64,000 nt of DNA from contig NW_026250403.1 in assembly GCF_024521635.1 (NCBI RefSeq), forward strand, positions 1,178,001 to 1,242,000. The letters are read 5' to 3'. Of the stretch, positions 9,801-42,792 are shown piece by piece (within the stretch, counting starts at the first letter, position 1; each line of letters begins with the position of its first letter). Source of the DNA: Tricharina praecox. Taxonomy: Eukaryota. The notes beneath the pieces were generated by a model. The model was not told where the DNA came from. It was given only the letters and a program-made list of their open reading frames with translations, and did no database searches. A program made the position numbers and the translations under genes.

Positions 9801-10723
9801 TGCTTCGACGTTCGTTGGCCGTACGATGGTTAGAGGATGGGAACAGGACTTATATTAGCTGGGTCCGGATGGCACCTTCCCGCGGCCTTGAACTGAGTGA
9901 CCAGCTCATGGTACATGTAGTAGAGTTGATTGTGCAGGCAAGGTCAAGGGGACTCGGTTGAACGGCACCCCCGCCATGATGGAGAGAGTCCAGTGTAAAC
10001 GAAGTGTGGGGATGGCTGTTGGCGAGGCGAGAGGGCCGGCCCATGCGCGTCGCGGTCCTCGGCACGAGCTGAAGTGGTCAAGCGCAGAGCTTCGCGTTCG
10101 CATGTGAGACCAACGTCAGACTCGAAACAGTATGGAACATAAAAGACGACGATGATATTTCTCTTCTCTGTTGAGTTTGTGCGGTGCTTGTGAAGACAAT
10201 CAAACATAGCCTCTCACTGCAGCGGTAATTCGACTTGGATTCCGTCGCCTCCACGCCGTAGCTGGAGACTGCCATGATCCAATTTAAAGGTCGAACACAA
10301 TGATGATTAAACAAAAATTCGTGGCTAGACATCACAGTGTATCACTCGGTCCAGATTCTACTCTAGTCAAAAGTAACATTCAGTTTCTTTTCCTATTCTA
10401 AAAAATGCCTCTTTTGTACAGATGCTTAATCATGAAACAATAAAACTAGAAAATGCAAATAGAAAATAGAAATTGGGACGCCTATTACAGTTTGAACTGA
10501 CTAACATTTATGGACATTGGATGTACCTTTAGCCCAAAGCTCTGGACAACTCTCGTCTCCGCAGCTGTCACAGTATTCTACTTCACCATAATATCTCCTA
10601 GCCCCAACCCCCGTGTTGAAGCACAACATCTCACCTAACCCACCCTCGAGTTCGTCTCCCACCCCGCCCCCCTTCCACCCAGTAGTCGGGAAATCTTACC
10701 TAACGACACCAGCGACAGGCAAC

Positions 10724-11410
10724 ATGCCGAAAGCTAAACCCAAGAAGTCGAAGAAGGCCTCGGTGTCGAAGCCCTACGACAGCAGCACCGGCATCAGCAG
10801 AGGGCCTCTAACCCGCGCTCGCACTCGTGCAGCTCAGTTGGAGAAGGCCCACAAGAAGACTGGCATAACGATCGCAAGCAATCCCGCCCACCCCGTCCCA
10901 CCCCCTCCTCCCCGTACGACGTTCGAGAACATCCCCCTCGATTTGCACCTGTGCATCGCCGACCACCTCGATTCCTTTACGGACCTCGCCTCGCTGTCCG
11001 TGGTGAGCAGGAAGTTCTACCACCACTTCCAGGACGCCTTCTGGAAGTGTCTGTCCGAAACCGAGTTCGAGGAGCGTCGGGGTCGTTACATCTCGGCCGC
11101 CGAGTGGGCCGCCCAGATGGGGTACCCGAACACTCTGCGGCGCCTCTTGGATATTGCGGGCGAGGAAGCGTTCAAGATGCCGCCAAAGAGGGAGGATGGA
11201 AAGGTCTGTGGCCGCACAATGCTGGAGAGGGCGGTCGAGTCTGGTAATGATCGTTGTGTCGTGTTGATCATCGCCAGGAGCAGGGACTTTGACATTCCGG
11301 ATGAATATTTCACCTGGAGAGGTGCGTTCTATCTTGCCAAGAGCCACAAGATCTTTTCGCTGTTGGCGGAGGAGGCGTCTTCAAGATTGGCGATGCGTGG
11401 GTTTCGGTAA
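10724..11410 (+). CDS. F-box-like plus degenerate ankyrin-repeat protein with basic N-terminus
   Basis: FENIPLDLHLCIADHLDSFTDLASLSVVSRKFY (F-box-like); AAEWAAQMGYPNTLRRLLD and TMLERAVESGNDRCVVLII (ankyrin-like); ATG at 10724. Confidence 0.65.
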   Translation: MPKAKPKKSKKASVSKPYDSSTGISRGPLTRARTRAAQLEKAHKKTGITIASNPAHPVPPPPPRTTFENIPLDLHLCIADHLDSFTDLASLSVVSRKFYHHFQDAFWKCLSETEFEERRGRYISAAEWAAQMGYPNTLRRLLDIAGEEAFKMPPKREDGKVCGRTMLERAVESGNDRCVVLIIARSRDFDIPDEYFTWRGAFYLAKSHKIFSLLAEEASSRLAMRGFR

Positions 11411-11634
11411 TGGTTGGAGCATCGATCTAGGTACTTTGACCAGAAGTGGAAACTTCATGGATTTTCTCACGTGTTTCGGGAATGGGAAGTGTTAAGTGCA
11501 ATAATGCTTGCTACTTGCCTGATTAGATAGCTATAGAATCAATTCAGGGCGCTCAGCCATCTCAGGGAAAGCTCCGCTTTCTCCAGTACCTAGATTCCTA
11601 TACGTATGTCAATCGGCCATTCGAACTTCCTCTC

Positions 11635-11916
11635 TCACTCGTTCTCTCGTACCTTCGACACACGCACCCTGATCCCAAACAAAATCCACTTGAACAGACT
11701 TACGTGACATCCACATGGCAACAAGAACTTATGGCGACTCCCCTGCATGATAACAACCCTTGAGTTCCCGGTCCTAAGCGCACATTCAAAATGTATTGGA
11801 TGTCTATCCGGGCACGTGGACAATACGCACCGACGGTTCAACAAAAAGCAGGGGCGCAAGGGGTCAGGACTCGGGATAGGACTCTTACAAGAGCAGGTAG
11901 TCTGTATCGACAGCAT
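11635..11916 (-). CDS. Possible small Cys/His-rich (RING-H2-like) protein, 93 aa
   Basis: MLSIQTTCSC...CVLSTCPDRHPIHFECA...LPCGCH. The C-x3-H-x2-H-x2-C core resembles RING-H2; there is no other support. Confidence 0.3.
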   Translation of the reverse strand: MLSIQTTCSCKSPIPSPDPLRPCFLLNRRCVLSTCPDRHPIHFECALRTGNSRVVIMQGSRHKFLLPCGCHVSLFKWILFGIRVRVSKVRENE

Positions 11917-12469
11917 GGTTATTTCCGGCAGTAGTGGGTTCTCGCGGGTGGTGGATGAGAAGACGGCAATCTTAAGCAAACAAATGGCGTGGGTATTTAT
12001 ATTGAGAGCTGTCGCCAGTCCAACTTGCAACTTGGAGCAATTCAACCTGAATGTTGGCTTCAGCTTCCGTTATGTCTCAAAGGAAATAGCCGTGAATCTC
12101 AACCAATCGGTAAACACCGCCACAGACGGAATACCTACAGTCATACATGAGCCATCACTCACGCCACCCCGGACAGGAAGGTCGCTGTCTCCACCCGGAC
12201 CACACACCCAAGCGAGAGACGGACAGGACAGGACAGGGAGTGCCCCACTCTCGCTAAATCATAACTAGCCGTCAAGCCAGACCAAGCAACAAATGCGATG
12301 AGCGGAGAGATGAGCTCTCGAAAACGTTTGGTAGTAACTTGGTACCCCAATCCGGGAGAAGAATCGGCCCACACAGGTCCTATCTGATTTATATATACGC
12401 GTGCGTCCGTCTCTCCTTTCTTGCTCTCTATCTCTCCGTTGGACGCGAACGTGTCATTCGAACTCCATC

Positions 12470-14712
12470 ATGTCGAGTAATCCCCCCGCCCGTCTCCCAG
12501 AGCTCACAGCTGTGGAAGAAAGCTCGCTAACGCGTCTTTCACAGAAAAGCACTTCATCTCCTCCGACGCCAGCGCGCTCATCATCGCCTCGCTGTGCGGC
12601 GTGGCAGCCTGCCACCCGGGGCTCGTCATCTCCGAATCCGACAAAAGTCCCCCCTCCGCATCCCTCCCGCAATTCCCCGCGCTGACACAATACACGCAGT
12701 TATCTACCGCCCGCCCACCGTCCAAAAAGTCACCCTTCTCTCCGGTGGCGGTAGCGGCCACGAGCCCGCGCACGCAGGATATGTAGGTGAGGGAATGCTC
12801 GACGCCGCCGTCTGCGGCGAGGTCTTTGCGTCGCCGAACGCACGGCAGATAACGACGGGGTTGGAGGCGGTGGCTTCCGACAAAGGGTTTGTCCCTGCTC
12901 TCCCCTCAACGATGGATCCGGGCGCTGACGTGTGGCGGGTGTTAGGACGCTGGTCATCGTGAAGAACTATACTGGTGACAGGCTTAATTTTGCGTTGGCT
13001 GTGGAGAGGGCGAGGGCCCAGGGGAGGAAGATTGAGACTGTTACCGTCGGGGATGATGTGGCGGTGGGGAGGGAGAAGGGGAGTCTGGTGGGGAGACGTG
13101 GACTTGCCGGGACGGTGTTAGTGCATAAAGTTGCGGGGGCGGCGGCAGAGAAGGGGTACACTTCACATGTGACTGGGGCGGTGGTGGTAGTGATGCTAAT
13201 TGTGGATACAGACGGGATCTCAAAAACGTCACCGAGTTGGCGCTGCATGTCGCCAACAATCTTGCGACGGCGGGCGCGAGTCTGGGACACTGCACTATCC
13301 CCGGGCGTGAAGCCGCCAAAGAAGGGAAGGAAGTCGAAGAGGTCGCTGGCCTTGAGATCGGAACGGGAATCCACAACGAGCCCGGGTACAAGCGTATCAA
13401 TCCTATCCCACCGCACCCCGTTCTCATCGCAGAACTGCTATCCCTCTGCCTGGACACGACCGACACCGACCGTTCCTACCTCTTGCGCAAGCCACAAGAC
13501 AAAGTTGTGCTCCTGGTCAACAATCTGGGTGGGCTGAGTAACCTCGAACTCAACGTTCTCGTAGGGGAGACTCTTTCGCAGCTGAACTCCACTTATGGCA
13601 TCACTCCGGCGAGAGTATTCGCCGGGGCTTATGTAACCAGTCTGGATATGCCGGGGTTCAGCATTACGCTGTTGAATCTCCCGGTGGAGGGGGACATCAC
13701 CCCACAAACGGTGCTCGAACTCCTCGACGCGTATACCTCCGCGGTTGGCTGGAATGGGAGTATCAAGTCCGCAGTCTGGACGGCCCCACCGACGGTTGTC
13801 AAAACACCCACTTCTCCCTCCAAAGCGGCGAAACACAAAAAGAAAGATCTGCCGACTATAACATGTACCCACCCCCGCCCTCCCCCACCCCCACCTCACC
13901 CCACCCCATGCAGCCCTACCTACCCCACATATCCAAATCGGGCCGCTAACACCCCCACAGCGGACCCAACCCTAACGTTCCGGATCCTTGCCTCCATCCA
14001 CTCCCAAGTCAGCTCCGCCGAGCCATCGATGACCCACTTCGACACGCTCGTCGGCGACGGAGACTGCGGCACGACCCTCTTCGCCGGCGCCGAGTCCCTC
14101 CTAACCGCACTGATCAACACCTTCAACCTAGTCGAATGCGCGCTCCAAATCGCCACGACGATCGAGACGTCCATGGGCGGCACCTCGGGTGCGCTCTACG
14201 GGATTTTCTTCTCGGCCTTCGCAACCGGGCTCAAGCTGCAAGCACAAGCCGCGAACCAAGCGCAAGCCGCGGACGAAGACCTCTCCTCGCCGCCCACCTC
14301 GCCCATCGCCACCAGCATGCCCGCCATAAACGCCATAACCTCAGCCACGGTCAGCTTTGCGGCCATCGCCACCGCGAGCAGGCACGCGCTGGACACGCTG
14401 ATGAAATATACCCCCGCCCGCGTCGGCGATCGCACGCTGATGGACGCGCTGATCCCGTTCGTGGAGGCGATCCAGGCGCACCACGATGAGGGCGCGAAGG
14501 AGGCCCTGAGACGCGGACTCGAGGCCGCAGAGAAGGGATATGAAGCGACCCGTAAGATGAAGGCAAAGCTGGGACGGGCTAGTTACGTCAATGCTGTGGC
14601 GTTTGAGGGCGAGGGCGTGCCCGATCCGGGTGCGTTGGGGGTGGTGGCTGTGATTAGAGGGATTTTGGAGGGCGTGGAGAAGGAGGAGCGCGGTGGTGAG
14701 TCGGATGAATGA
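12470..14712 (+). CDS. DAK1: Dihydroxyacetone kinase (DhaK+DhaL fused); introns 12477-12544, 12647-12699, 12887-12945, 13156-13211, probably 13865-13960
   Basis: Spliced N-terminus [83 protein letters not shown]. Confidence 0.93.
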
Positions 14713-15040
14713 TTTTTTGTGGGGAGGGTGGGGAAGGTGGGGGACGAAGAATGGAGAGGTGGAGAGGGTGATTAGGGCATTGCTGATTTCGTCCAACTAT
14801 TCTATACCCGTTTTAATGAATCAAAGTCTTATTGAACCCTACATAAAACTCATTGGAAATCGTTATCGTGACATTAGTTGGGCAAAGGAAAGCAGTGAGC
14901 ATCGCCCATAGCTAGCTAAAAGTACAACACCAATCGCACGCAACAAAGAACCCCCCTTCCCCCATCCATCCATCCTACAGTACAGTACATACTAAACAAA
15001 AACCACCGCCCGATCGATAGTAATACAACCTCATCCCCCA

Positions 15041-18000
15041 TCACTTCTTCGCAACCAACTCCCTCCTCCTCCCGGCAATCTTGATCCCAGCCGTCCGTCT
15101 GACCACCTCGACGAGCGACCACTCCTTCCCCTTCGTCCTCTCGCGCTTCATAAACCTATCAACAGCGGCACTCTCCTTCCTGCTCAGGACGAGGAATCCC
15201 TTCTCGTCCAGAGCCAGGGACGACACCACCTCCTTGGCCAGTATCCGCTCCGGCCGGTCGAGCAGGACTTTATAGCACTTTGTGGCCTGCGACGGGGAGG
15301 TCGAGGATGAGGAAAGCACCAGGTCCAGGTGACGGTACTCCGCCTTTGACCATACCAGCCCCGAGGGCGCGGTGGAAACCGTCGTTATCTCGTCGAGGAG
15401 CGAGTCGATCAGGGTTTCCTCTCGCGCTTGGGGGGGAGGGGGGGAGGGGCGACTGGATGATGCAGTGGCAGTGGCGGCTTGCTTCTCAAGCATTCGGGGT
15501 GTGGTGCCGGCTGCTGTAGCAGTAGAAGTGGAAGTGCGACTGGACGACGCAACAGTCGCGGGCTTCTTAAACTTCAGTGTGGCAGGAGGCGGCGAGGTCT
15601 CGCGCGCCGAGCGTTCATTGAGTGCGGACTCGGTCTCATCGTCTATTGTGATTGCGCCGACCACTTCAGCCTGGCGACGGACATCGGAGCGCTGGCGGTC
15701 CCACTCCTCCAGCAGCGCTTTGGTGGCGTCGCCTACCAACTGCGAAGTGCTGCTGCCGACTTCCGTTGCGTTCTTGCCAGTCGCTTCGGATTCGACTAGT
15801 GCTGTGCGGTCGGCCGCCCGCTGCCGTGCGTCGATGCTGGTTTCGTCCTCGAAGTGGACGGAGCGGCCGCCGGGGGTGCGGGGGAGCCCAGAGGAGGTCT
15901 GTGCCGATGAAGGAGCATGAACAGGGGCGGGAATCACGGGTTTGCTGGGAGTCCACTTGAACGGGGAGAAGATACGCGCGAGGTAACCTGTCGGTGCTGG
16001 GGGTGACACCTGTGGAAGACTCGACGTCGGACTTGGAATACCCGTAGTGTCAACCGTAGTGTCAACCGTCGGGTATGAAATCTCCTCCTGTCCCGGCTCC
16101 ACATAGCTCTGAGGAAGAGTAGGGTAGGGTCGGGAATCGTCTTGCATCTCGTTGGTCTTATCTTCCTCTTCCTGGCTTTCGGGTGTCGGCGGACCATCGA
16201 AGTCGTTGCCGAACTCTTCTTCGATCATCTGCATGGACTCCTCAACCTCTAGTGCGTCGCTCATGATCTCGCTCGCTTCACGGACGAGAGTGAGATTGGG
16301 TGTTTCACGGTTAGTACGACGTTTGGAGGCGGGGGCATCGGGAATGTCGTCTTCGTGCTCGCGCTTATTGCCCTGCGCTGGGGTGACGATGCTCTGCGCC
16401 TTCTGCGGAGAAGGTATAACGACTCTGAGTGGCGGTGATGACGGGTAGAAACTCTCCTTCTGCGTCGTAGTCTCATCCCCCTGCTTTTGCTTGCCCTTGC
16501 CCTTGTCTCTGGATGTTGAGGAATCCGGCAGCCCGTAGAATGACTCCTGGGTAACAGGATCGTCTTCGAACAGCGGGCTCGCTGCCCTATTCGACGACCG
16601 ATGCTCAGCCTGAGGAGTAAATGATCTTCCAGTCGAGATATAAGAAAAATCGGCTTCGATGGGTTGGAGTAGCTCGTCTGAACGTAATGAAGATACTTCG
16701 TCCATATCCACATCTTCCTCTTCCTCTTCACCCCCCTCCTCCTCATCTGCGCCGTCGTGCAAACCAGTGCCCTCCTGTAGTGTTTTGGATGTATGTAAAG
16801 TTGCGGTAGAGATATACGTCATATCGAGATCGGCCTCCGGTGTATTTCCCGACTGCCACACTGAAGCCGTAGACAAATCTGCCAGCGCCTCTTCTTCGGA
16901 CATGTCCACATCCCCATCCTGTTCCTCCACGGTCCCAAACTGCGCTGTCAAGTCCGTACCATCATCTAGGAATCCGGACCGATCCTCTGGTAGGGCCATT
17001 GAACCCCCCTCACTGACGAGAAAACTCTCCCCAGCCGGGTTGGCAATGTTATCTCCAATGGGCCGATTCGAACCGGCCGATGCAACACTTTCGCCACGTC
17101 TAGAAATCCTACTGCCTTGCACCGACGCCACAGGGGTATTCGATTTCGCGGGCGACGGGGATGCCACCGAGTTCGGATCCCTTCCGGACAGAGCGTGCCT
17201 CTCGCCATTCGACATCGCCGAGGCTGACCTGGTGCTTCTCCTGGGTGTGGATGCCGGGGCCTCGATGTAGGATACGGGTGCAAGAGAAGATCTACGGGAG
17301 CGTGTTGACGCAAGGGTGGGAACCAGGGAAGTTCGTGGGGTCCTCGACTTGCGCCGCTTGCCGGGGGATTTGGAGGCGGATGTTTTCACGGCGGTGGTGT
17401 CCGCTGATAGTGATGAAGCCTTGGATAGAGATGTCAGCTTGAATAATATACGGCAGTGCAAATGCAGTTCTTCCATGTACACCGGTAGCCAGCCCTTGGA
17501 TGCATCCAGCTCCATGGTACGCAGTTCGTGGCTGCTGAGTGGGTCGCCTCGGTATCATGAATCAAGGATGCAAGGGGCAGGAATGTTCCAAGATCCAACT
17601 TGATCATACCCAGCTGAAAGCGGTGATACAAGCAGACATACGGTAACTGCCGAGTCGCAAGATGTGGTCATCGGGATTATGAGACACCCGTCCAGCCGTC
17701 CAGCCGTCCTCTGCGCAAGACAAAAAGCAAGAAAGGTCTTACCTCATGTTTCTCCCCATCGTCCTCCTCATCCACCTCCGCAGCTGTCGCTTTCGCCTTC
17801 ACCAGTGACGCCCTCTTCCATCTAGGGGTAGTGGCCGGTTTCGGTGTGACCGCCGCCTTTCTCGGGGATGTTCCAGCCGTCGATTTCACCACGGGAGTCA
17901 ACCGTCGCGGAGCCGTAGGTGTCGCACGCCTCCCCTTCGGTTTCATCGTCTCACTAGGGGACGAATCCAGCCCCTTGACCGGCACTTTTGTGGTGCGCGT

Positions 18001-18381
18001 CCGCGTAATTACACCCACCGAGCGATCGCGACTCTTTCTCTGGCGCGGGCTCGGCACCACCTCGACGTCCATGCCCTCGCCGGCAAAGCCCAGCGTGAAG
18101 CTCGGTGGTGCCATTCTGCCGCGCTCATCGCCGGAGCCGTCGGAGCCGGAGCCGTCGTCGCGCTCGGCTTCGACCATCACCTTGATTCGCCACGGGGAGA
18201 GGTGCGAGTTGGTGGTGGCCGTCATCTTGGTGGGTGAGTGCACCTGTACGGCGGATGTGCTTCGGGGTTGCGGCGTGCGGAGTGGCTTGGACGGGGAGCG
18301 TGACCGGGAGCGGCGCGAGGGTTCGGCGATGAAGGGGCCCGAAGATAGTGAGAGGGGATCGGGGGAGGAGTTGAACGGCAT
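15041..18381 (-). CDS. Large intrinsically disordered S/T/P/E-rich protein (N-terminal SSPDPL and SPWRIKV motifs, small folded C-terminal domain); splicing between 17404 and 17742 unresolved
   Basis: Two long co-oriented ORFs (17677-18381, 15041-17515) with a GTAAGA donor at 17742. The motifs resemble my recollection of fungal 'AT DNA-binding protein' hypotheticals. Confidence 0.65.
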
Positions 18382-19626
18382 TGTGTTTTTGGATAGCGGT
18401 GGTGGTGGTGTGTTGGCACACGACTAAGCTCGGGTTAAGCTCGAAGGCGACGGCTCTTTGACCCTGTCTGCGATAGTAAAGTATTGACGCGAACCAGGCG
18501 CGTTAATATGGTGCGTATTTTACAGTAGAGGCGTATGTCGAGACTCGCGTATGTCGAGTAATTGTAGCGCGCAGTTAAGTCAGAATCATGTGGTGTGTAG
18601 TGGTGAAGGTTAGGTGGTGGTGGTGGGGGCGTCATACCTTGATTTATTTTGCTTTAGTTGTTGACAGCGCGAGCACAGGGGGGAGCAACTGTTGTCAAGG
18701 CAACGAGTCATGATGAACGATTAGAGTGGTGTTGACAGGGTCGCACACATGCAGGAACCACACTGGTCGAATGGCAATCCCTGCCGAGTTATGGACAGCA
18801 TAAGAAATGGTTCTCTTTACATCTCTTGATCTCTTCTTCCCAGTACATGGTCAACAGAATAGTACTCCATATTCTTGCATTCTGAAGCTGGGGCTTCGTT
18901 TGTGTTTGTCACAATAGTAGGCGATTATGATACCTAAGTACCTATCACCAACAACGCATATTTCGATCTCGAGTTTACGCCGGCCCCGACGTTTCAGCTT
19001 GGGCGATACCGTACGTGGTGGATCTTTGCTTCTATGTGTGGATCTTTGCTTTCACATGTGGATCTACACACATATTGAACGGAGGGTACTTTGGACTTCG
19101 TGTATGTAGACGTTGAGAGCTTGGACCGACATCTCACGCTTTTGTGGGTTGTAATTCGTCGATCTACCGAGTGACGGCACGTGAAGGCCTATATGTGGAA
19201 GGCGATGGATGAGTACTATTCTGAATACTAGCATCATCTCCAGCAGAGATAATATTGATTGGATGACGAGGAATTCGATAGCCGGAAAAAGAACCTGGAA
19301 TCGAGGCTGGAGTCAGCCTGGGGGTTCGGATGAGTCACTGAAAATCAAGACTCGAGCAGGTGACTAGTACCCAGCGCCGAATGATATATAAACGATGAGT
19401 CCCACTTGAAATACCAGCTAGTTTAGAATCGCCATGGCCTTGAATGTGAGAGGAGGAGGAGCAGGAGGGCCATGGGCCCTGTGCTTATATTCACCCTCTC
19501 CCCCACCACCTTCCCCACAACCCCCAACTTCCAGCAAGTACATAGAACTATACACTGCAATACCCAACAGATAACCACTTCCATCCAAAACCACACATTA
19601 CATCACATCACATCACCACAGCCGCT

Positions 19627-20295
19627 ATGGACCAGCTCACAAACCTTACTGCCACAGTCACCACAGCGATCCAGGACGCCGCCGCGATCATCCATAACAC
19701 CGTCCCCAGCAGCAGCAGCATCAAGGCGGCGATCAGCAGCACTGCCACCGCGGTGCACTCCGCCGTCGCCGACACCACCGGCGCCATCCACACCGCCATC
19801 GCCGACACCACCATAGCCATCCACACGGCCGTGCATGACGCCACCAGCGGGCTGCACCCCGCATCCCCCAGCACCGCGGCGCCCTCGCCGACCACACGCA
19901 CGCCCGAGCAGCTCCGCGAGCGGGTAGGCACGTACAAGTACACGCACACATTACAGCAACGACTATCAGAGTACCACGTATTCCGGCGGCTGAATGCGGC
20001 GGGGCACGTGCAGGTGATGCTTGAGACGTCGATCGTGCCGCAGAAGAAGCTGTCGGTGCGCGCGGACCTGCGGTTCGGCGAGTTCGTGTTCCTGGTGCGC
20101 AAGCGACAGCTGCCGAAGGTCCCTGCGTCGACGGCCCTTTGGTGTATGGTCGGCGTGGAACATGAACTGCCACATGTTGCGATGACGATGGCGCAGATTC
20201 ATGCGAGACATGCGGACTTTGATGGGTGGTTGTATGTCGTTGTGAGGGAGGAGACGACGTTCGGGATGGCGTCGGGGGATGAGGGCGGTGACTAA
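19627..20295 (+). CDS. Divergent Atg8-family ubiquitin-like protein with ~100-aa N-terminal 11-mer-repeat extension, intronless, 222 aa
   Basis: aa ~102-213 align by eye to Atg8: KKLSVRADLRFGEFVFLVRKR vs [21 protein letters not shown], and MAQIHARHADFDGWLYVVVREETTFG vs [26 protein letters not shown]. Confidence 0.85.
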   Translation: MDQLTNLTATVTTAIQDAAAIIHNTVPSSSSIKAAISSTATAVHSAVADTTGAIHTAIADTTIAIHTAVHDATSGLHPASPSTAAPSPTTRTPEQLRERVGTYKYTHTLQQRLSEYHVFRRLNAAGHVQVMLETSIVPQKKLSVRADLRFGEFVFLVRKRQLPKVPASTALWCMVGVEHELPHVAMTMAQIHARHADFDGWLYVVVREETTFGMASGDEGGD

Positions 20296-23228
20296 CTGGT
20301 GCTACTGATGGAACGGACAGTGAATACCTAGCTCAATGACCGAGTACAGTTGGTTGTGGGTACGTACTTACATCCTACCTGAAGCTGCCACTCACCCATG
20401 AGCCATCAATGAATAATGCACCGTCGTCCATGGAACACTGCGTTCATAGCTCTTTTTTTTACCACTTCTGCTATCCCCCACGTGCAAGTTTTTGCTATTT
20501 AACACCTGCAACCTGTTTACTCGAATTTCGAAGAGCGAGTGAGAGAAAGAGAGAGAGAGAGCGCGCGAGAAACCATCAATTTACCGCCACATACGGTACG
20601 GCCATACTACCTATTCCACATCAGCCCCGTACCTCCCATCATCCATATGCCATTCCCACCAAGCCCACAGGGGGTGATATCCAAGAGGAAGAATTCCATC
20701 GCCCCCGGTCCGTTGCGATCGAATCGCGCGAGTACCTACATCTTGTGCATACATCGTCGGACTGCAAGAAACGAAGCTTCGACCAGCGCAGCTGCGCAGA
20801 TGGCCCGAGAAGACATTTGATCGCCGACGGGTTCGTTTCTTCAACGGCGGTCCCCCGTTCATGTGTCTGGGTCATTCACGATCGCCGGCTACCGGGCTAG
20901 TTGGGCCTTGGTGGTGATCAGTGATGATCCAGGCGGGTTGCCGACGGATGCCGACGGGACATGCGTGCAAGGGCTCAGGTAGTAGCGATTACTAGGCCGC
21001 TGTGTATGTGGAGTGCCGTTCAGCGTTGCGGTGACCGGCGAGCGGCGGTATGGTGGGACCAAAGTGCGATGGCGGGCAGACCCGATGAGGTCGCTTCAAC
21101 GTTGGAATGTTCTCCGTTGCTTTTTTGTATGTTCGTCTAGTCGGTCGGTCGGTCTCTTGTTCAACACATCAGACCTTATCCACCACCGCAGACATTATTA
21201 TCAATATGTTCAGTCTGGAGATCACAGGCTGCTTTTCTTTCTTGTTGCTTTTAGCCAATTGAATCAGTCTCATCAGTCGTCCACACCAGTCAAGGGTCTC
21301 TCACTAGGTACTCGGCGTAAAGCTTGAGCCGTGGATATTTCGCAGTGGACACTGGAGGGGCGCTCACACCCAGCCTGTGCACGACGATAGTTACATATCG
21401 GAGTGAGTGCCCGTGACCCACGACCCACGACCCATGCCACCCGCCCACCCGGTAACACTGATCGTGAGGCTCGGACTGCTCTACAACTAGCACTGTGCTC
21501 AGCCCGGCATCTGACTCTTCTCGAAATTGCCTCCGAGGCACTGTTTGCCAGCGGCATTGTTTCAATATCCTACATATAGGTATGTCGGCGCAGTTTAGAC
21601 TTCAGCGTAGAGGATTCCACAGCCCCACTGTTAGTTGTCGTCGCCGCCCTGTACGTAGTTGTCCGTGGAAGACGGCGCGGCGGCGTCTCCGTTGCAGTGC
21701 AGCGTTCCACATGGCTTCGGGGCATGCGCAGTGCACATGTTCAGCAGAAGCACCGAACCACCGCTTACTCTATGTCGTGCGCATCGCAGACTCGTACGAC
21801 TCGTGCATACCGGCAGTTACATATGTAACTACCCCTGCCACATCTTGCTCGGCGAGTGCGCACTGGAGGTTTGGAGAGAGGGTGACTAAGCTGATCACCA
21901 GCATCCGGCATGGGATGGAAGGATGTTCCTCCGCGCCCGATGCATAGAATCGGAGATATGTGCGACGAACAAACGGATATCTTTCCGCTCCAGTCTCCAG
22001 CAATGTCAGCACCTACCGCTGCAGTGGATGCTTTCGCTGCGGGGGAGGCGACGAATCACACATCGCAGTTGCTGGTGTGAGGGATGGATGGTGGTTTGGT
22101 AATGGTAATGGTAACGGTAGATAATCCTTCGAGAAGCGTATGCAGATACTTTCTTGGTTATGTGCGACATCTACCGTACTTCCCCGTGGTCGTATTGTTT
22201 GCTGCTGCCTGATGAAATTCCGCAAGGTGTGTATGTAGGCAACATCACCTCTCCAGGGTCTGTGCCTTATGTTGCTTCTATATAGCACATCCCGTACACA
22301 CTGTCGACGCCACTAACTACTAGATAACTAGTATTTGTGCATGGATACCGTAGATGGTTCAGGGCTGACGAAATCGCACGGTGGGGTTTCCCCACACTGC
22401 CCGGTCGAGCAACGGCAATCTTCTGCAGACGCCCGTATCGCCGCATCGGAAGGGAAGCCATCAGCACTCCACATTTCGTACATAGGTGGCACATATCAGC
22501 GACAACTCTGAGGACCGGGCGAGCGTGAAACAGCCTCCCAGCCTGCCTACCACGACGAACCGTCCCACTTCCTGCGTAACTACAGATCGTCACCTTCGAC
22601 GTGTGGCCCTCTAGGGGGGACCCCGGAATCTGTTGCTTGTGGCTGTGCAGAATCCCCCGACTTCCTCGCCTCGTGCATGGAATCGAAGCCATAGCCTGCC
22701 ACCCTGCCACCCTGCCACCCCACATCCCTCCCCCGCCTCAGCTCCCCGGCCTCCTAAGACGGAGTGGTCGGCGCCCAGCCGCATGGGCTTTGTGATCCCT
22801 CCTCAATGAGCCGTCTGTCTGATCCCCACCTGCAATATTCCATCACTGTCAGACTCGATTCGACATCCCAACGACAAGCCGAAAAGAAGAAGAAGACGGA
22901 GAAAAGGAAGGACTGACTCGAATTCAGCACAGCGACTTCTGTAACCACTGTAACCAACAAAAATACCCATACAACGACGATCCTGCTAGTACATCCGCAG
23001 CCCAGCCCCTCAAACTGGATCCACTGCACCAGATACATGGACGGTCCGGTCCGCCTCGCCAGCAGGTGCCTCGCCAACTAACCGAATCGTGACCGCGACT
23101 CGCAAAACAGCATACCAAAGCTAAAAATCAATATCTCGGCGGCGACCACCCGACGACGTCGTCTGCAGCAAGACGAACCTGATTTCCCCCGAACCCTTGC
23201 CCCGATTCGGCCTGTGCTTGGCGCCGCT

Positions 23229-26200
23229 ATGATATTCGAGAGTGTGATGCCCGTGGTCGGGGGAGGACGCGCCGGACGACTGCCATCCCCCCCGCGCTCG
23301 ACGGGCAATCAGTTTCTGAGCGCTCCCCGCTCGTCGGGCTCGAGCAACTTCTTCAACGAGTGGGCAAGCCCCTTCAAAGGCTTGCGTGATGCTGTCGAGG
23401 AGGACGATGGCGACGGGAGCACGTCGTCGTCGCCTGCCGTGTCTTCGGTATTCGATGATCCGATGTCGCCCACTACGATGGTTACCTTCGGGGCAAAAGA
23501 AGATGCGGCGGCAGCCTGGGCGATTCCAAGCCCCAGCTTGGCGAGGGTCGATTCGTTGGGCCTGATTGGGCTCGAGGACATCCGTCTGAGGGACGGCTCG
23601 CTGAGTCCTCTGCCGCCGGGATTGATTCTAACTATGGACCTAATTGATCCGTTGGGAATCGTGGGGATGGACCAGAATACTCAGGCTCCCTGGACTAGCT
23701 CGGGGGAAGATACCACGATGTCGGACATCGCTTTCTATTCTTCCTGTCGGTTCATAACCACTCACGTGTATGGTCTCAAGACTGACTGCTTCTAGTGCCT
23801 GACCCTATGGAGTCGAATTCCTTGCCAAATGACGTATTCTCGCACTCGCTGCCAACCGGGAGCTGTGTAGGCCGTAGTAATACGGTTCCTAGCCGCAAAA
23901 GCTTTCCTATGACGCCCGGCGACGTAACAGGACGCAAACGTACCCGAGACCAACGGTCATCGCCCCAGCGGAGGCCATCCTCCTGCGATTGCATCCTACC
24001 GGACCGCCCAACACCTGGCCAGAAGGCTAAAGGCCTGCTTCTGACCGATCTTCCAACCGAGATACTGGTGGAGATATTTCGATATGCCATCCTATGGTCT
24101 CCGCCCCGGCCGCCGCAGTACAAGCACAGACTGGTGCCCCACCGACCTTATTCCCGGCGGGCAACTACTGGGGACGTACACGTGCGGCCGCGCCTAGTCC
24201 AACACGCCGGACCGTCCTCAGCATCCGCATCGATTCTCACCGAGCCAAAACCGAACGAGAATCCTCGGGAAAAGAAATTATTCGGTGTCAACACGTTACT
24301 CAGAATAGAACACACGTGCAAGCACTTCCGGGAGATACTGAAACGGGGCGATCAGTTCACTGACGAAATATTCTGGATGGTGGCCGCACGCAGCTGCTGG
24401 AAATGGCTACCGGAGAAACTTTCGGATGTGCAGGGTCACGATGAGGCATCACAGACCTCGTGGCGCAATCTCGTCGAGGTGTTCGGGAGGTCGGAGAACA
24501 GTCAGTTTGGAACGGGAGAGAAGGGGAAAGGAGGGGTCGATTGCTTCGGCGCAAAGAGGGTTTGTCCGCCGGCGTCAACATGGGAAATGGAGAAAACTCG
24601 GCGGAAGGAGATCGGGAGGAATGGTCGGAGGCCGAGGAGGTTGTTGATTGCTTGTGCTCAACCGGGGCCAGACATGTTTGCCGTTACACCGGACGAGGGT
24701 TCTAGGAGCTGGACCATATCGCTGTCGGCACGTTACGGCGAAGAATATATGGTGCGGCTTGATGAGTACGGGCGCTTCGGTAAAGCTGGCAAGGTTCCCG
24801 AAGGCCTCAAGAGGAGCACCAACGTGGGATTCTTTGCGCCGGGGATCTTTAAACATACAACGAACCGACTCCTACTTGTCAAAGCACGGGTACTTCAAGG
24901 CCTACAGTCGACACAACTTCAGGCTCGCTCTCCCGGAATGACTCAAGCGGCTGTTACATGGGACCTATCCACCATCCCGGAATACGTCGCCGATGAGAAA
25001 GCCCATGTGGCAAGGTGTACCAGTCACGAGGGGGTATTACTGTGCAGCTTCTTCACCCATCGAAACCCGAGTGACCTGGATGAATACCTCGACCCACCCG
25101 AGGACCCTCGGTTGTTTTGTGTCGAGGCACCGATGTATAATTTCGACTCGGCCATGAGCGAGGACACCAATGGCATGAGTTCGAAGATGCGCGGCAAACT
25201 CCCCGAGAAAGCCGCGCCAGCCGGGGAAGGGATGAATTTTCGCTGGCGCCGCGACTTCGAGTACCGCGATCAAACCGCGGCCGGCCGGGCAAGGGCATTG
25301 CATCCGGTCGTGTGCAATATTCAGATCAATGCGAGGCATGCGGTTGCGCTAATTCGGTGGAATGAAACCACGTCTCAGTCGATGCAGCAATTGTTTGATC
25401 GCGAGTTCCATGTGTTAGACGCCATGACGGGAGAAACAGTGAAATTGCTCGAGTTTCCCAATCTTTGTACGTCTTTCTCTTCTTTTTCTCCATCGTTTGA
25501 TATTTCCTATCGCACTCGGCCGCCCATGGCCATTGCATATATAAATCCTTTGCCCCATGCATTGTCCATGAAAAATGAGAACACCTGCTTTATGGACACC
25601 AGTCTTCTAAATTAGATGTTGTAGGGAAAGTCTGGTTTGACTTTCTACTCCCTTCTTCCAGAAAAACACCTGGGACATCTCTGCATTTGTCCCGGCCTGC
25701 CGACCTCTCCCTGCCTTCTTTCGTTCAAATCCCTTACAACCCCTGCTAACACTGCCCAGTCTGGGACTTTCGGCATCACGACATGCACCGCGAATACAAC
25801 CTCATGCGAGTAGACAAACTCAAAAATCTCTACAACCCGCGTCCCAGCTCAGCCATGGGGCCCTCAGGCAACCGCGCAACCCGCGTCCACCAAGACGCCT
25901 TCTTCCTGACCTCGGAGAACATAATCTCCGGCTCACACGACTACTGCAACTGGGTGTGGCCGCTCGAGCGGCCCACACCTCCATGGGGCTCGTACACAGC
26001 GGAACACAACGACGGCGGCCGGATCCCCGAGCCCTTCGACGTACTCGATGACTACTACTGGAACGTCCCCTCATCCACCTCCAACCCGGGCACGAGCAAG
26101 ACGCTCTGGGAGCCCACCAACGAGCGCGCCGGATGGTGGGTGCGCACCCCAAACCAGGTTCTGTGCTTCTGGCACGGCGCCGCGCTCTCCCACGACCAAC

Positions 26201-36995: not shown

Positions 36996-38462
36996 ACAAA
37001 AACAGTCTTTACCTTCTCGCTTGAGCACCTAAAGGCCTGTGGACAGTGGCGGACCAAAGCTTGCCGTCTTACGGACCGGAGCACATCTCACGCTCTGGCA
37101 TAGCACCTACATAAGTCCAGTTCTTTTTCTTTTTGGCAACAGAAAGTGGTTATTCTTCTTTGGTCCGCGTGTTGCCCGAATCGAATCGAACAGGGTTGAC
37201 TAAGTACCGTATCGGCCATCGGCCTTTCTGAGGGTGTGGAAGGAGTGGAGAGAGAGGGAGAAGGAGACGGTTGGAAAGACTTGACAGCCACCACCACCAC
37301 CTGCTCGGCGCTCATCCTCCGTTATTCATTCGTACATCACTCACCGCCACGGATACACATCTTGGTACATACACACGCACCCTCTCTTCCTGTCTGTCTG
37401 TCGCCATTCGATTTTGCTCGCTCGATAAGGCGTCAACACCGTGGCTTTCGTTGTGGGTCCCCGGACTTCAGTCCAGGCAAGTTCTGCAGCTATCATATCT
37501 ATCTGTAGTTGCAAAGCATACATACGGAAGGGAGTGGGGCGGGGGCGCGGGGGGGCATATCATATCATACCTATCGAGTTGAAGCGCTGACTTGCTAGAG
37601 TAACTACCACCACCACCGCGCCTGACAGTTTGATCGTCGTCTTCCCCCATTCATCTCGCGGCCTCTCCTCTTCTCCTCACCCCTTCTGCCCACCGTATTA
37701 AAGTTAAGGTATGCATTTCTATTTCATTTCTATTTCATTTTTCCTCTCGTGTGAAGCTTCTTCTTTCTTTCTTGTTCGGGAGAGGCGAGGAACAGTACCT
37801 ACCGAAGTACCTAAGGTGGCGACGGGGTCAGAGCTGTGGATCTACAGAGGCGATGTGCGTGAAATGTCACCGTGTCAGGTCATGCTCAAGATCAACATCG
37901 CCTGCCGGCTGGTCGCTCTCGCTGCTGCCGCTGCTGCTGCTGCTGCTTACGCATGATTGATTCACTTTGTTCCCATTCCCATCCCCCATTCCCATCCCTA
38001 TTCCCATTCCAATTCCAATTTCAATCCGTCCCCCTCCCCACCCCCATTTAGAACTCTCGTTCTGATATCTGCTCCATCTCCATTGCCGTTCCCATCACCA
38101 CCTCCCCATTCATTACACACGCGATTAGACGAGTCCTCGGACGGGCGTCGGTGAAAACTAACCGACCTATAGGGCTGTCAGCCAAAACTGAAGCTTCGGC
38201 TCGATTTACCGGGCTGTGAAGATAAACAAACAAGCAAGCCCCGATAGCTGAAAGCCCGAAACTGATACGCCGGTAAAAATAATAATAAAATAATAATAAT
38301 AATATAAAAAAAAAGGTGATACACACTTCTCTTCCGGGGTTCCAGATAAAAAATGGCTCACGGCCTGTGCCTTCAGGGATCCGGATCTCACGCTCTTCAC
38401 CTCCCCAGTGTTCACTCCAGTCAAAGTGTTCCTCGACATCTACCGTCCGTCCCGACCACCGT

Positions 38463-41149
38463 ATGTTCTCAATAGGCCCGTCGTCTTCCAAACGGGAACA
38501 ACGACAAGATAATCAACAACAGCAACGGCCTCCGTCGCCATCGCCGCCACTGCCACCTCCTCCTTCGAATCCCCAGCCCGATCCCCTACCTACTACGTTG
38601 TTTGGCCGTAAGCGAGCACGATCCACCTTACCGAGACTCTCGCCTTCGCTTTCCTGTCCGCATCTCCCCCTCTTCGCGACGGGGACATCGTCACCACCGG
38701 CCGTCACGTCGGCCGTCGCGTTCGGAGCTACCACACCCACCACCGAATTCCGGGGCAGGTCGCGAGACGAAGACACAACGCCTTCGGGAAGCACATCCTC
38801 CAGGAGACTCTCAATGACGGGATTTCCATGGGATGGTCGGGTTACCGGTTCGTCGGGGAGGATGAGTCCGGCTGCTGAATTGACTGGAAACATCGCTAGG
38901 CGCTCCCGTCCCGCGACACCTCCTGCACAGCTACTCGTTCACGAACCGGTAAACGGATTCAAGGATAGGATCTCGCCGAAATCAAACTTGCGGTTGGAGC
39001 TGCCAGCTCCAGGAATCAGCGGCATGCAACAGCGACGGCACACGATAGACCCGAACGCCTGTAATCGTCACCGAGGTGGATTCGTGGGGCAGCCGCTGTT
39101 GGGATTGGCTTATCCGACAACTCCCGACATCGGCCTAAACAATTCGCCCATCATATGCGGAGCTTGCAAGGAGAGCGTAAACGGACACCACAATGGAGTC
39201 GACGGAATAGGAGGAGGAGGAGGACGAGGAGCAGGAGGACGAGGAGGGATGCATAATGGGGGAGGAGGAATTTTGGGAGGTGCTGCTACTGCTGCTCAAC
39301 ACGCGTTACTGGCCGCCGGACCGCACATGGTGAGGGGTGGACTCGCACTTCTGACCCCTCCTGACGATAATGGGATATTGGATTGGCAGCAGGACGGAAT
39401 ACAACGAACACAAGCCGATCGAGAGGCCACGGTGCGGATGATGACCGGGATGAGAGAGTTCACGCCATCTCAAGCTCGGGAACCTGCAGCGACAGAACAG
39501 GTCAGAGTCGGTCCGCATGAGAGAAGCGAACGCGCAGACACCAATGTCGATAGCGGTTCGTTACCGAATACTTCGCATGCCGTCGACCTGACGGTGAAAA
39601 CGGAGCACGAGGCCTTCGGAGACGATTCGGCGGCGCCCACGGACGGCGATTGGATAGGAAACGCAATGGAAACACTCGGTTCGTTTCAGCCATTCTCCTC
39701 ATCCTACTCTCCCCCCCCCCCCCCCCCCCCCTTTCCAACCCTACTTACTGACCATCTCAAGTTGGATCCGCGTTTCCCGTGTGCATGGCAACCGAAGCTG
39801 TGCGGGTATTATCCTACACTCTGCCGTGTCCACTGCCCGATGCACCCGGCCCCGATGCTCCATCGAGCAGTAGTAACCCGACAAATCCTGACCGCTTGCC
39901 CATCTCGGCGGTTTCGGCTCCAGCAGTTGCTGCCGCCGCTGGACAGCAACTGTCGCCAATGGTTCTCGCTCGGTGCACTACCGGGAACGTTGGGGTTTCG
40001 GTTCCCGTCAAGAGCGTGGATTGGGGCACTACAACCGCGCTGCACCACATGACAGCAGCGATCCAACAGCGTTATCAAAGAGAGGGAACAAGGAGAGTAT
40101 ACATCCACGTCTCGCACGCTATCGATCCCCAGATCCCGCTGTCAAGACTTCCATCCACTCCACCCATCACGGGTTCCCTCACCGGTAACGAAAGCGATGT
40201 TGGCTACTTTACACCGACGGTGTTTAGCAGTATCGTGATCGCACCAAACAGCCTCGCATCGACGCCTGTTCCAGGAACCCCACTACTGACCCACCCGCCA
40301 CCTCCATTGTCCAACCCAATACTCCCTCCGAGCAGTCTTCATCTGACACTACTTGAACGCTATATCCCTCCAGCAACACAGGCGGAAGACACGGCGATGT
40401 TCTCGACGCGCTCCTCGCTCCTGGTCGACCGGCTCTTTGAGCTCTCGTCGCAGGGTGGCAGCCTCCTCTTCATCTACCCGACAAAAACCGGCGCCATGGA
40501 CTTTGACCGCGACTATCTAGGCCCCGTATTGGACCCGCTACTACGCAAGTTTATGGTTCTGTACCATCTCCGCGAAGACCTGCTCTGGGGAGTCCGAAAC
40601 ATGTCGTCGATGCCACACATGGCCGAGTTCGACGTGCTGCGCTCACGCATCGAAGCCTTCTGCGCCGCACTCACGAACGGCGAAGGTGGTCTCCCACGCA
40701 TGCCGACGACGATGGTGTTCAGTGCCAAAGCGAAGGTGTCGTTGAACGAACTCAGTTGGCGGGAGTGGTGGACACAGCAGGAGCAGGTGCGGGTACGCGA
40801 GATCGTCAAGAAGCACGGAAACAGCCAGGCTGCCGCCGCCGCCGCCGCCACCGCCTCGAACAAGGGGAAGGAGACGGAGAATAGCAAGAGTGGGTTCTGG
40901 CAGGGATACGGAGTGCCCGGCGATCTGGCTAGGGAGATTTTGGATGGTGTTCGCGCGCCAACTGTCAGGCCGAGTAGTCGGGGAATGGGAGAGGCGGTGC
41001 TCGCGAGCAGCATGTCGGGCAGTGGCTGTGGTGTTGGCAGTGTTGCACCCGTGGGCGTTGGACGGATCGCGGGCGGCATCAGACGGCTCGAAACTATCAA
41101 GAATAGAGGTGTTGAAGTGGGCATATTTATCCTTCGAAGAGGAAGTTGA
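38463..41149 (+). CDS. Hypothetical protein: disordered N-terminal half, folded C-terminal domain; intron 39679-39761
   Basis: ORFs 38316-40052 and 39779-41149 are joined in frame by GTTCGT..CTGAC..AAG. Protein-like C-terminal segment LLERYIPP..LVDRLFEL..GSLLFIYPTKTGA..YLGPVLDPLLR..WWTQQE. Start ATG uncertain. Confidence 0.75.
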
Positions 41150-42600
41150 TCGATTGGCTCATCTTTGGCCCGAGCATACAAGGGGGGAATGGGATGGGAT
41201 GGGATGGGATGGGATGGGATGGGATGGGGTGGGTTTGTGAAGGGAATTTTTGGGTGTCGTTATTGTTTTTTTGTTTTTTGTTTTTTTTTGATTATCGTTT
41301 TTGTCCTTTCAAAATACGGATGTTTGTGTTTTTTTTTATGTTTTTTTTTTTGCATTTTTATTGTTATATGGGGTATCTGTGTTTTTTTTTCGTCATTTCA
41401 ATTCGTAAATCTGTTGGGAAGTCTTTTTTTCTACTTTTTTTTTTCGTTTGTTTTCTCCCTGATTTCTCCTGATTCTGTACGTGCAACGATAAGAACTGCG
41501 GGTGGTGAGGGGAGGTGGGACGGGGTGGACCGTGGGTTGTGGGTTGTGGGTCTGGGTGTGATATTCTTTCTGTCTTTTTCCTTTTGTGTTTTTTTGGGAT
41601 CTTCGGAAGGTGTAGTCGTTATTTAAGTATTCTATTTTTTTTCTCTTTCTTTCTGCCTCGCCTCCCGCGGTTTATGTATGCGTGTGTTTTGTGTTGCTGT
41701 TTTGTATTTTGTGTTTTGTGTTGCTGTTTTGTGTTTTGTGTTTTGTGTTTTGTGTTTTGTGGTTTTCCGATCTTATTACTTCTTTCAACTTTCAACTTTC
41801 TAAGTTTGTAACTGAGGGGATGGAGGATGGAGATGGGGGGGGTTTGAAAGATATACAGTGGTGGAGTATGAGAATGCAGATGCATACTGATGCGGATTAT
41901 CAGGTCTCGTTGTGAACGTAGGAAGTATGTGAAATGTGAATGGGAAATGGGAAATGGGAAATGGGAAATGGGAAATGGGAAGGGTGAATGGGAAGGGTGA
42001 ATGGGAATGGTGAATGGGGTATGTGAATGGATTGGGTTTGAGGGAGGTCTTTTATAGGCAATACTGAGTGTCTGGTAATCACTAGTAATCACTGGCCGCT
42101 TTCTCCATGCTGAGCGTCCAGTACTACGGTAGAATTTGGCGGGGATATGTACATCCGCAGAATACATATGCAGGTACAGACAGTTTCTTTTTCTTTCTGT
42201 TTCATCATTCTGTAGGTACTATCTAAGTACATGATCTATTCCACCAAGTCGGCCCATGATAGGTTTAGTACCGTACCTACTCTAGGTACTATACACACTC
42301 TGTTTTCCGATCTCACCAGGTGTCTAAGGACGTGGGTTTCTCGTATGTACATATGTAAGTACGTATGTGCATAAGTACGTAGGAACGACAAGGAAACGAC
42401 AAAAGAGTACATAATCGCAAAAATTCCACTCGTACATATTCCAACTCCTCCTTCTCCTACCTACCATACTCCTCCCCTAACCACGGCCTCGCCAATAGGT
42501 ACTTATCTGTGGCTCCACAGGGAGTCCGGCACGGCTAGGCTGCAGACCTCTGCAGTAAAGAGCTCAAATACCTGTCTGCACCTATGCTTCCTGTCCTGGA

Positions 42601-42792
42601 CTGGTGGACTGGTGGACTGGTGGACTGGTGGACTGGTGGACTGGTGGACTGGTGGACTGGTGGACTGGTGGACTGGTGGACTGGTGGACTGGTGGACTGG
42701 TGGACTGGTGGACTGGTGGACTGGTGGACTGGTGGACTGGTGGACTGGTGGACTGGTGGACTGGTGGACTGGTGGACTGGTGGACTGGTGGA
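42601..42792. repeat. (CTGGTGGA)x24 perfect octamer array
   Basis: 192 bp perfect tandem repeat. Confidence 0.97.

Follow-up and report, generated by a model that had tools for sequence, protein, structure and literature searches.

The 64,000-nucleotide stretch of Tricharina praecox DNA analysed here (contig NW_026250403.1, positions 1,178,001 to 1,242,000; hereafter the window) carries on its plus strand, at positions 19627-20295, a single intronless open reading frame (ORF) of 222 codons followed by TAA. This ORF encodes a divergent member of the Atg8 ubiquitin-like family and is a real protein-coding gene that is maintained by selection. Textbooks present fungi as having a single Atg8, and nearly everything known of Atg8 biology proceeds through one surface, the docking site for LC3-interacting regions or Atg8-interacting motifs (LIR/AIM).

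An earlier note on this DNA, prepared by a model from the letters alone, had described the ORF as a non-canonical Atg8 paralog of an ascomycete, with a long N-terminal extension, changed docking residues and an intact conjugation glycine. As checks it proposed a Pfam search with HMMER, structure prediction, phylogeny, substitution ratios and a look at expression. The host is indeed an ascomycete (Pezizomycetes, Pyronemataceae), and the ORF and its 222-residue product, with 100 residues in front of the Atg8 domain, are as described there.

The Atg8-like gene and its syntenic ortholog

The window protein (P0001) was characterised from the ORF list and its translation and by comparisons with Pfam/HMMER, MAFFT and BLASTP. 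Counted from stop to stop the frame begins at 19546, and 19627 is its first ATG, with none before it. The Pfam family ATG8 (PF02991) matches residues 138-213 with 41 bits (E 2.3e-10), above the curated cutoff of 27. In a phmmer search against PDB sequences, residues 102-216 align with residues 5-120 of Atg8f (7dht_A; E 1.3e-9), and all of the matches listed (60 rows) are Atg8/GABARAP/GATE-16/LGG-1/LC3-type chains. The similarity is far beyond chance. APG12 (PF04110) gave no match to the window protein at E values up to 10; its label appears merely as a co-annotation on Atg8 clusters. The end-to-end Atg8 pattern that had been seen earlier is thereby borne out with a small correction, since the Atg8-like part starts at about Gly101-Thr102-Tyr103.

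The same assignment is reached at the level of predicted structure. An AlphaFold2 (AF2) model was calculated on an alignment of 149 rows and compared with the PDB by Foldseek. Its mean predicted local distance difference test (pLDDT) value is 83.4, and the ten-residue blocks between residues 101 and 210 reach 90-98. The domain comprises two N-terminal helices (103-106 and 109-122) and a beta-grasp core with strands at 127-134, 140-145, 169-175 and 202-210 and helices at 150-161 and 188-195. Among the matches listed by Foldseek all belong to the Atg8/GABARAP/LC3 family (E from 2.5e-9), and the template modelling (TM) scores, normalised to the target, lie between 0.75 and 0.88 for Atg8-family chains without a fused partner. 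The prediction thus recovers an Atg8 fold.

A syntenic ortholog, P0002, was used as a query against metagenome contigs and led to two nearly identical loci, L001 and L002. On both of them it is a single ORF, of 178 residues, so the gene is free of introns here and in the ortholog, as the earlier note had it for the window. The contig scan with P0001 as query returned no locus, and a third match to P0002 (L003) was rejected as spurious, being located on a high-GC bacterial contig. Upstream synteny is extensive (window 10641-18381 corresponds to L002 474-8559). Around the gene itself, alignment at the DNA level is confined to the part encoding the Atg8 domain (360 nt at 74.7%), and neither the 5′ nor the 3′ flank aligns with that of the ortholog beyond the start-codon context.

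The ratio of nonsynonymous to synonymous substitution (dN/dS) was estimated by the Nei-Gojobori method (NG86) for one species pair, the window gene and its ortholog. It amounts to 0.145 for residues 96-213 (118 codons; proportions of synonymous and nonsynonymous differences, pS 0.587 and pN 0.149), with synonymous change near saturation, and to 0.53 over the 49 alignable codons of the extension. In the 354 nt compared, differences at codon positions 1, 2 and 3 number 21, 16 and 55, the third position accounting for 55 of 92. A six-frame control over these 354 nt gave 0.15 in the sense frame and more than 1.8 in four of the five others. The exception is minus frame 1 (0.32), whose third positions coincide with those of the sense frame and which is broken by stops in either species; minus frame 2, open in the two species, has a ratio of 2.83. 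Three neighbour genes from the same two genomes have ratios of 0.03, 0.24 and 0.25, and the constraint on the Atg8-like gene is therefore ordinary for a working gene. We conclude that the gene is under purifying selection rather than evolving neutrally. With a ratio this low confined to the sense frame, and with that frame unbroken in the two species, a processed pseudogene is ruled out.

The order of genes differs downstream. The 3′ neighbour of the ortholog (L002 11427-14267) corresponds to window 38314-41178, about 18 kb off and inverted, so that, immediately behind the Atg8-like gene, the two arrangements differ by an inversion or insertion of about 18-21 kb. The protein encoded at 38314-41178 is 95.8% identical between the two genomes, has a dN/dS of 0.03 and belongs to no Pfam family.

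The clade, its docking residues and its C-terminus

A HMMER search of 1.84 billion representative proteins returned 196 sequences at E <= 0.001, nearly all of them ordinary Atg8. Four rows stand out: P0003 (92 residues, E 5e-54), which is the public model of the window gene, P0004 (199 residues, E 3.5e-15), P0005 (173 residues, E 7.4e-12) and P0006 (95 residues, E 3.7e-9). Their 90% clusters contain 1, 4, 1 and 3 sequences, respectively. A profile search of a word-indexed collection found no further member. Altogether the clade comprises nine sequences in four lineages: P0001 and P0002; P0004, P0153 and P0155; P0005; and P0006, P0156 and P0157.

The public model P0003 starts at Met131 and ends with residue 222 (window 20017-20295), and a protein of this extent would be devoid of both N-terminal helices and of strand 1. 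We regard it as truncated because conserved coding sequence lies upstream of Met131, back to Met1 at 19627. The 95-residue rows (P0006, P0156, P0157) and one more clade row may be truncated models likewise.

Members of the clade are recognisable as Atg8 proteins by several routes. Their scores with the Pfam ATG8 model are 43-60 bits (50-60 bits in the three further lineages), and a profile built from all nine matches Atg8/GABARAP chains of the PDB end to end (E 4e-26 to 1e-18). The AF2 model of P0155 has the same confident domain fold (pLDDT 92-98). Atlas models of P0002 and P0155 align to ATG8 clusters, with TM-scores for query and matched row of 0.58/0.69 and 0.47/0.62; no clade-specific Atlas cluster was found for either protein among the matches listed.

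The clade is united in two trees. A quick one, built from 146 rows, places all nine sequences on one branch (Shimodaira-Hasegawa approximate likelihood ratio test, SH-aLRT, 96), whose stem measures 1.22 changes per column. A careful one of 44 rows, with seven of the members included, again recovers a single branch (ultrafast bootstrap, UFBoot, 97; SH-aLRT 93), which is present in 100% of 200 bootstrap trees, a bootstrap that was not fully converged. The attachment of the clade to the rest of the family is not resolved in either tree, long-branch attraction being a concern; in neither is it attached to canonical fungal Atg8. Evidence for the clade that is independent of the trees comes from the length of a loop. 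Between canonical positions 33 and 46 all nine members have eight residues, and among the 135 other rows that cover this loop 79 have 14 residues, four have eight and one has six. The six-residue deletion, located before strand 2, affects positions 35-40 in the window protein.

Canonical fungal sequences behave differently. The canonical rows named by source come from Fusarium oxysporum, Aspergillus affinis, Cercospora zeina, a Yarrowia lipolytica cluster, Fibroporia radiculosa and Sporobolomyces salmonicolor, and in the careful tree the tip branches of the canonical ascomycete and basidiomycete rows measure about 0.1 or less, i.e. these proteins are nearly invariant. The window protein is 31% identical to F. 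oxysporum Atg8 (P0030; BLASTP). The clade is thus small, fast-evolving and separate from near-invariant canonical fungal Atg8; with its length and its place in the two trees, the window protein is not the canonical ortholog, and its description as non-canonical holds, while that as a paralog is likely. A retroposed origin, which had been considered possible, fared less well. The clade has four deep lineages and is not joined to canonical fungal Atg8, and there is no A-run within 170 nt after the ORF. We found no evidence for retroposition, which these data neither support nor exclude. Within the 64-kb window there is no second Atg8-like stretch.

Four other Atg8-family rows (P0010, P0013, P0014 and P0017) also have N-terminal extensions, with a ‘G-T-[FY]’ motif before helix 1, and keep the canonical docking residues. 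They fall outside the clade in both trees; the cluster of P0013 is named from a viral metagenome.

For the comparison of single residues we follow the numbering of the Fusarium protein, which we take to coincide with that of yeast Atg8 up to Gly116, and counts refer to 149 aligned Atg8-family rows (nine from the clade and 140 others). HMMER, MAFFT and BLASTP concur on the alignment of two replaced segments (Table 1), and the exchanges of KKYLVP for KKLSVR and of AIFIF for ALWCM that had been read from the sequence are therefore firm. Positions 46, 48, 49 and 50 belong to the LIR/AIM docking site, with its two hydrophobic pockets. Position 49 is Tyr or Phe in 139 of the 140 other rows and Leu (eight) or Lys (one) in the clade. 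Position 50 is Leu, Val, Ile or Met in 138/140 rows outside the clade; all nine members have Glu, Asn, Ser or Ala instead. A Lys or Arg occupies position 46 in 128/140 rows and in none of the nine. In the window protein Gln, Leu, Ser and Arg are found at 46, 49, 50 and 52, with Lys48 kept, and its lineage shows the additional changes Pro52 to Arg, Pro30 to Gln and Arg28 to His. The docking residues are hence changed as claimed, at 46, 49, 50 and 52 here and at 46, 49 and 50 across the clade, and the window protein lacks the conserved LIR/AIM docking site of the family. The review PMC7615515 describes this site as conserved in all Atg8 orthologues and as carrying the overwhelming majority of known interactions.

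The window protein keeps His9, Arg14, Lys48, Val51, Leu55, Gly58, Phe60, Arg65-Lys66-Arg67 and Pro85, and further Asp100, Asp102, Gly103, Leu105, Tyr106, Glu112 and Thr114.

Phe115 and Gly116 are each kept in 9/9 clade members and in 137/140 other rows. The window protein possesses the C-terminal signature of the family, Phe or Tyr followed by Gly and a tail, as a sequence feature: the codon of Gly213 lies at 20263-20265 and nine residues follow, so the conjugation glycine is intact as had been proposed. Tails after the glycine comprise 9, 10, 7 and 3 residues in four members of the clade and a single residue in the other five, and their sequences are unrelated. In the AF2 model the TFG motif follows the last strand and has lower pLDDT values, so the needs of folding alone can hardly account for its invariance. 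Judged from the alignment, this is the pattern that recognition by a processing or activating enzyme would be expected to leave.

The N-terminal extension is far more variable. Its predicted helices have pLDDT values of 75-83 and its linker 50-65. An 11-residue register is visible from about residue 13 to 77, and the underlying tandem repeat (Table 1) falls in a 45-residue stretch that is absent from the ortholog; the first 20 or so residues are common to both proteins. Full-length members of the clade have 55-125 residues before the domain. Extensions of different lineages do not align (BLASTP aligns the domain only, also against P0155), and that of P0155 is modelled as disordered except for one short helix. 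The extension is, in our reading, a labile appendage of low complexity. An amphipathic, lipid-binding role for the 11-residue repeat was considered and dropped as a general mechanism: the best hydrophobic moment within residues 1-100 is only 0.40, the ortholog is without the repeat, and the extensions of the other lineages are unrelated, that of P0155 being modelled as disordered.

Transcripts and other features of the window

The features at and around the gene are collected in Table 1.

Table 1. Features of the Atg8-like locus, in window coordinates
Feature	Position	Strand	Evidence
Possible promoter element TATATAAA (weak)	19385..19392	+	read from sequence; not conserved in the ortholog's flank
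Complete intronless coding sequence of Atg8-like protein, 222 residues + TAA	19627..20295	+	ORF list; start Met and first residues common to ortholog P0002; coding signature in this frame only
N-terminal extension, residues 1-100, Ala/Thr/Ser/Ile/His-rich, predicted helices 2-25 and 30-74, predicted disordered linker 75-100	19627..19926	+	composition, AF2
33-bp (11-codon) tandem repeat, 2.3 copies	19756..19830	+	Tandem Repeats Finder score 108, 85% matches
Atg8 domain, residues 101-213, two N-terminal helices and beta-grasp core	19927..20265	+	Pfam, PDB matches, AF2, Foldseek, dN/dS 0.145
QKKLSVR, residues 139-145, in place of canonical K46-K47-K48-Y49-L50-V51-P52 (KKKYLVP)	20041..20061	+	site table, row counts
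ALWCM, residues 170-174, in place of canonical A75-I76-F77-I78-F79 (AIFIF)	20134..20148	+	site table, row counts, BLASTP
Phe212-Gly213, equivalent to the canonical Phe115-Gly116 processing/conjugation site	20260..20265	+	invariant in 9/9 clade members; beyond last strand in model
Nine-residue tail MASGDEGGD after Gly213	20266..20292	+	translation
Part of spliced minus-strand transcript, antisense to the last 98 codons of the ORF	20000..20304	-	one X2 contig: 20000-20304 + 20372-20739
67-nt intron, GTAAGT...CAG on the minus strand, 9 nt past the stop codon	20305..20371	-	joints in X1/X2

Transcription was assessed with contigs of two runs from two studies, X1 and X2, which are RNA by guess only and have no RNA record. 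Contigs identical to the window cover 19439-19801, 19784-19974 and 20015-20304 in X1 and 19448-19818, 19857-20026 and 20000-20304 in X2; from two further runs, X3 and X4, no contig could be placed. No X1 or X2 contig covers 18800-19438; without a control from a DNA run, this gap, the starts at 19439 and 19448 and the ends at about 20000-20015 are not usable as transcript ends. Both runs contain a joint, 20304^20372, that skips 67 nt bounded by CT..AC on the plus strand. X1 has in addition the joint 20304^20368, which skips 63 nt and has an alternative donor 4 nt further in, as well as an unspliced contig (20275-20397). Because the skipped piece reads GTAAGT..CAG on the minus strand, it represents an intron in an RNA of that strand, one that the flank of the ortholog does not preserve. 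Across the joint the spliced antisense RNA contains an ORF of 199 residues; it belongs to no Pfam family, its frame is the antisense one with a dN/dS of 2.83, and it is taken as non-coding.

The check on expression therefore stood in one half only: contigs of the two guessed RNA runs cover the ORF, and the strand-informative joint is of the minus strand alone. The element TATATAAA is weakly compatible with a sense promoter. Sense expression of the Atg8-like ORF is likely rather than demonstrated. The spliced minus-strand transcript, which spans window 20000-21166, may be a natural antisense regulator.

The surroundings of the gene hold little else that can be assigned. Four minus-strand ORFs, a plus-strand ORF at 20409-20897 and the 199-residue antisense ORF have neither a Pfam family nor a coding signature. 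An Rfam scan of 18500-23500 gave no match, and no repeats were found near the gene. At 20987-21200 the depth of X1/X2 contigs rises from about 10-24 to 90-500, and mismatched, loose-ended contigs meet. This is as expected for a sequence that is repeated elsewhere in the transcriptome or genome; there is no second copy of the piece in the window, nor an Rfam match to it.

F-box-like proteins are encoded on both sides of the locus, at 10592-11410 (+) and 23786-25615 (+), and a dihydroxyacetone kinase (Dak1/Dak2) at about 12500-14712; no functional link of these neighbours to the Atg8-like gene is apparent. Further away, a perfect 8-nt microsatellite, (TGGACTGG)n with about 25 units, occupies 42597-42796. 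At 49363-50706 (+) lies the gene of a 448-residue co-chaperone with tetratricopeptide repeats (TPR) and a Cns1/TTC4 Wheel domain. Its 90% cluster includes fragments of 38-53 residues labelled Pseudomonas aeruginosa (in one case with the name of a partial ADP-ribosyltransferase), and these labels are probably a contamination or clustering artefact.

Possible function and alternative explanations

The reading that we consider most likely, and favour by a modest degree, is that the gene encodes an Atg8-type tag that can be conjugated, in which the canonical docking site is disabled and the N-terminal appendage is variable. The protein consists of three parts: the variable low-complexity extension, a complete Atg8 fold with a shorter loop, and the Phe-Gly pair with its short tail. 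An Atg4-type protease would remove the tail after Gly213, and Atg7 and Atg3 would conjugate this glycine to a membrane lipid. Canonical cleavage and conjugation appear the most likely route because all members retain the exposed Phe-Gly, whereas the sequence behind it drifts freely. Once conjugated, the protein would probably not read ordinary AIM cargo receptors, because Lys46, Tyr49 and Leu50 are replaced throughout the clade (and here also Pro52, Pro30 and Arg28). It could label membranes for other partners, or else modulate the shared conjugation machinery. The extension may be a disordered or helical appendage that is tolerated at the N-terminus like tags on Atg8. This scheme assumes that a canonical ATG8 is present elsewhere in the genome.

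A bolder version goes further and sees an orthogonal, hitherto undescribed Atg8-type modifier found in some fungi, which would be processed and lipidated by Atg4, Atg7 and Atg3, would be blind to canonical AIM receptors and would label membranes destined for a process that is non-degradative or has other targets, with the extension giving a new surface for interaction or membrane sensing. On the present comparisons of sequences we entertain it only tentatively, as a possibility. The undescribed branch of selective autophagy suggested in the earlier note is speculation.

Several observations weigh against a conjugated tag. The docking site is also used by the C-terminal tail of Atg7 and by the AIMs of Atg3 and Atg4, and the canonical enzymes may therefore handle the window protein poorly. 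Phe77 and Phe79, on which we take recognition by Atg4 and the membrane effects of lipidated Atg8 to depend, correspond to Trp172 and Met174; across the clade the first is Tyr, Trp or Phe and the second Leu or Met. The public gene model spans residues 131-222 only. The sole strand-informative feature of the contigs is the minus-strand intron. Finally, the clade is rare, with four representatives among 1.84 billion proteins, so that most fungi do without whatever function it has.

The explanation that we rank second is that the protein is made and not conjugated. Its role might then be that of a soluble adaptor, or it could regulate or act as a decoy for Atg4, Atg7, Atg3 or other Atg8-binding surfaces, and Phe-Gly would be kept for enzyme binding or for stability. 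The clade-wide replacement of docking residues that help Atg7, Atg3 and Atg4 to capture Atg8, the Leu or Met at the equivalent of Phe79 in 9/9 members and the long variable extension, unusual for a conjugated Atg8, all speak for it. However, an invariant, exposed Phe-Gly followed by a drifting tail of variable length is the pattern of a cleaved propeptide, and yeast Atg8 with mutated Tyr49 or Leu50 remains lipidated. We therefore treat the non-conjugated protein as a doubtful though serious candidate.

A decaying or silent duplicate, i.e. a processed pseudogene at a locus that transcribes only spliced, non-coding minus-strand RNA, is very unlikely. The joint 20304^20372 is indeed GT..AG on the minus strand, one contig combines it with 305 nt of the ORF in antisense, the public annotation holds merely a 92-residue fragment and no run is recorded as RNA. 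Yet dN/dS is 0.145 with near-saturated synonymous change and low in the sense frame only; the frame is intact in both species and conserved from the start codon through the first residues, the domain persists in three further lineages (Pfam scores 50-60 bits), the antisense ORF has a ratio of 2.83 and no family, and an unspliced contig (20275-20397) is present.

Weaker still, to the point of being hardly credible, is the view that this is the only ATG8 of the organism, a strongly diverged ortholog working in ordinary autophagy: no canonical ATG8 lies within the 64-kb window, but divergence among the canonical rows (Fusarium, the Yarrowia cluster, Fibroporia, Sporobolomyces) does not exceed about 0.1 changes per site, the window protein has 31% identity to them and a long branch of its own, and to our knowledge every sequenced Pezizomycotina genome has a canonical ATG8. 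Such a protein would also have lost the residues that, according to PMC7615515, are used by nearly all Atg8 partners.

How does a conjugated tag of this kind compare with known systems? With canonical fungal Atg8 (yeast; F. oxysporum P0030) the window protein shares the two N-terminal helices and beta-grasp core, Phe-Gly with a tail, and His9, Arg14, Phe60, Arg65, Asp100, Asp102, Leu105, Tyr106 and Glu112. It differs in its 31% identity, the 100-residue extension, the six-residue deletion at 35-40, the replacement of Lys46, Tyr49, Leu50 and Pro52, and Trp and Met in place of Phe77 and Phe79; canonical Atg8 is almost invariant, whereas the window protein evolves fast. Engineered fusions of a helix or LIR peptide to Atg8 (PDB 7yo8, 6aag) resemble it on paper, as a peptide or helix with linker precedes the Atg8 domain. 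These fusions are artificial and were made for crystallography, whereas the extension of the window protein is natural.

Outside this comparison, animal and plant Atg8 paralogs are about 115-125 residues long and have no long extension, and the Atg8 of malaria parasites is the parasite's own Atg8, not an extra copy. As in the multi-paralog families of animals and plants (LC3/GABARAP, C. elegans LGG-1/LGG-2, plant clades I/II; PMC7615515), the window gene would be an extra member beside a core one, whose partners may differ; unlike there, where that review describes the docking site as conserved, the site is replaced. The nearest published case we found is Mucor circinelloides, a fungus with two Atg8 genes, atg8-1 and atg8-2. 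Their cDNAs of 354 and 375 bp are of canonical length, and the authors call them redundant (PMC13300868); the window gene, in contrast, is divergent, longer and in a separate clade. The divergent malaria-parasite Atg8 with a non-autophagic role (bioRxiv 10.1101/2021.05.24.445495) is a precedent for sequence changes alongside a non-autophagic membrane function, although it is not related to the window clade.

Family, fold and probable chemistry are textbook. Unusual, in a phylum taken as single-Atg8, is that one protein combines the loss of the docking site with a retained conjugation end, an added extension and an evolution that is rapid yet constrained. A full-text search of the literature, to which supplements and subscription journals do not belong, found no description of a fungal Atg8 clade of this kind. 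Surveys of the family that rely on annotation will miss or misread the clade, as the public model is cut to 92 residues.

If the protein is conjugated, it would be a ready-made probe for roles of Atg8 lipidation that are independent of the docking site, and the fungal autophagy machinery would serve more than one modifier. The orthogonal modifier of the bolder version, if true, would be a natural separation-of-function version of Atg8. If the protein is not conjugated, it may instead be a built-in regulator of the conjugation enzymes.

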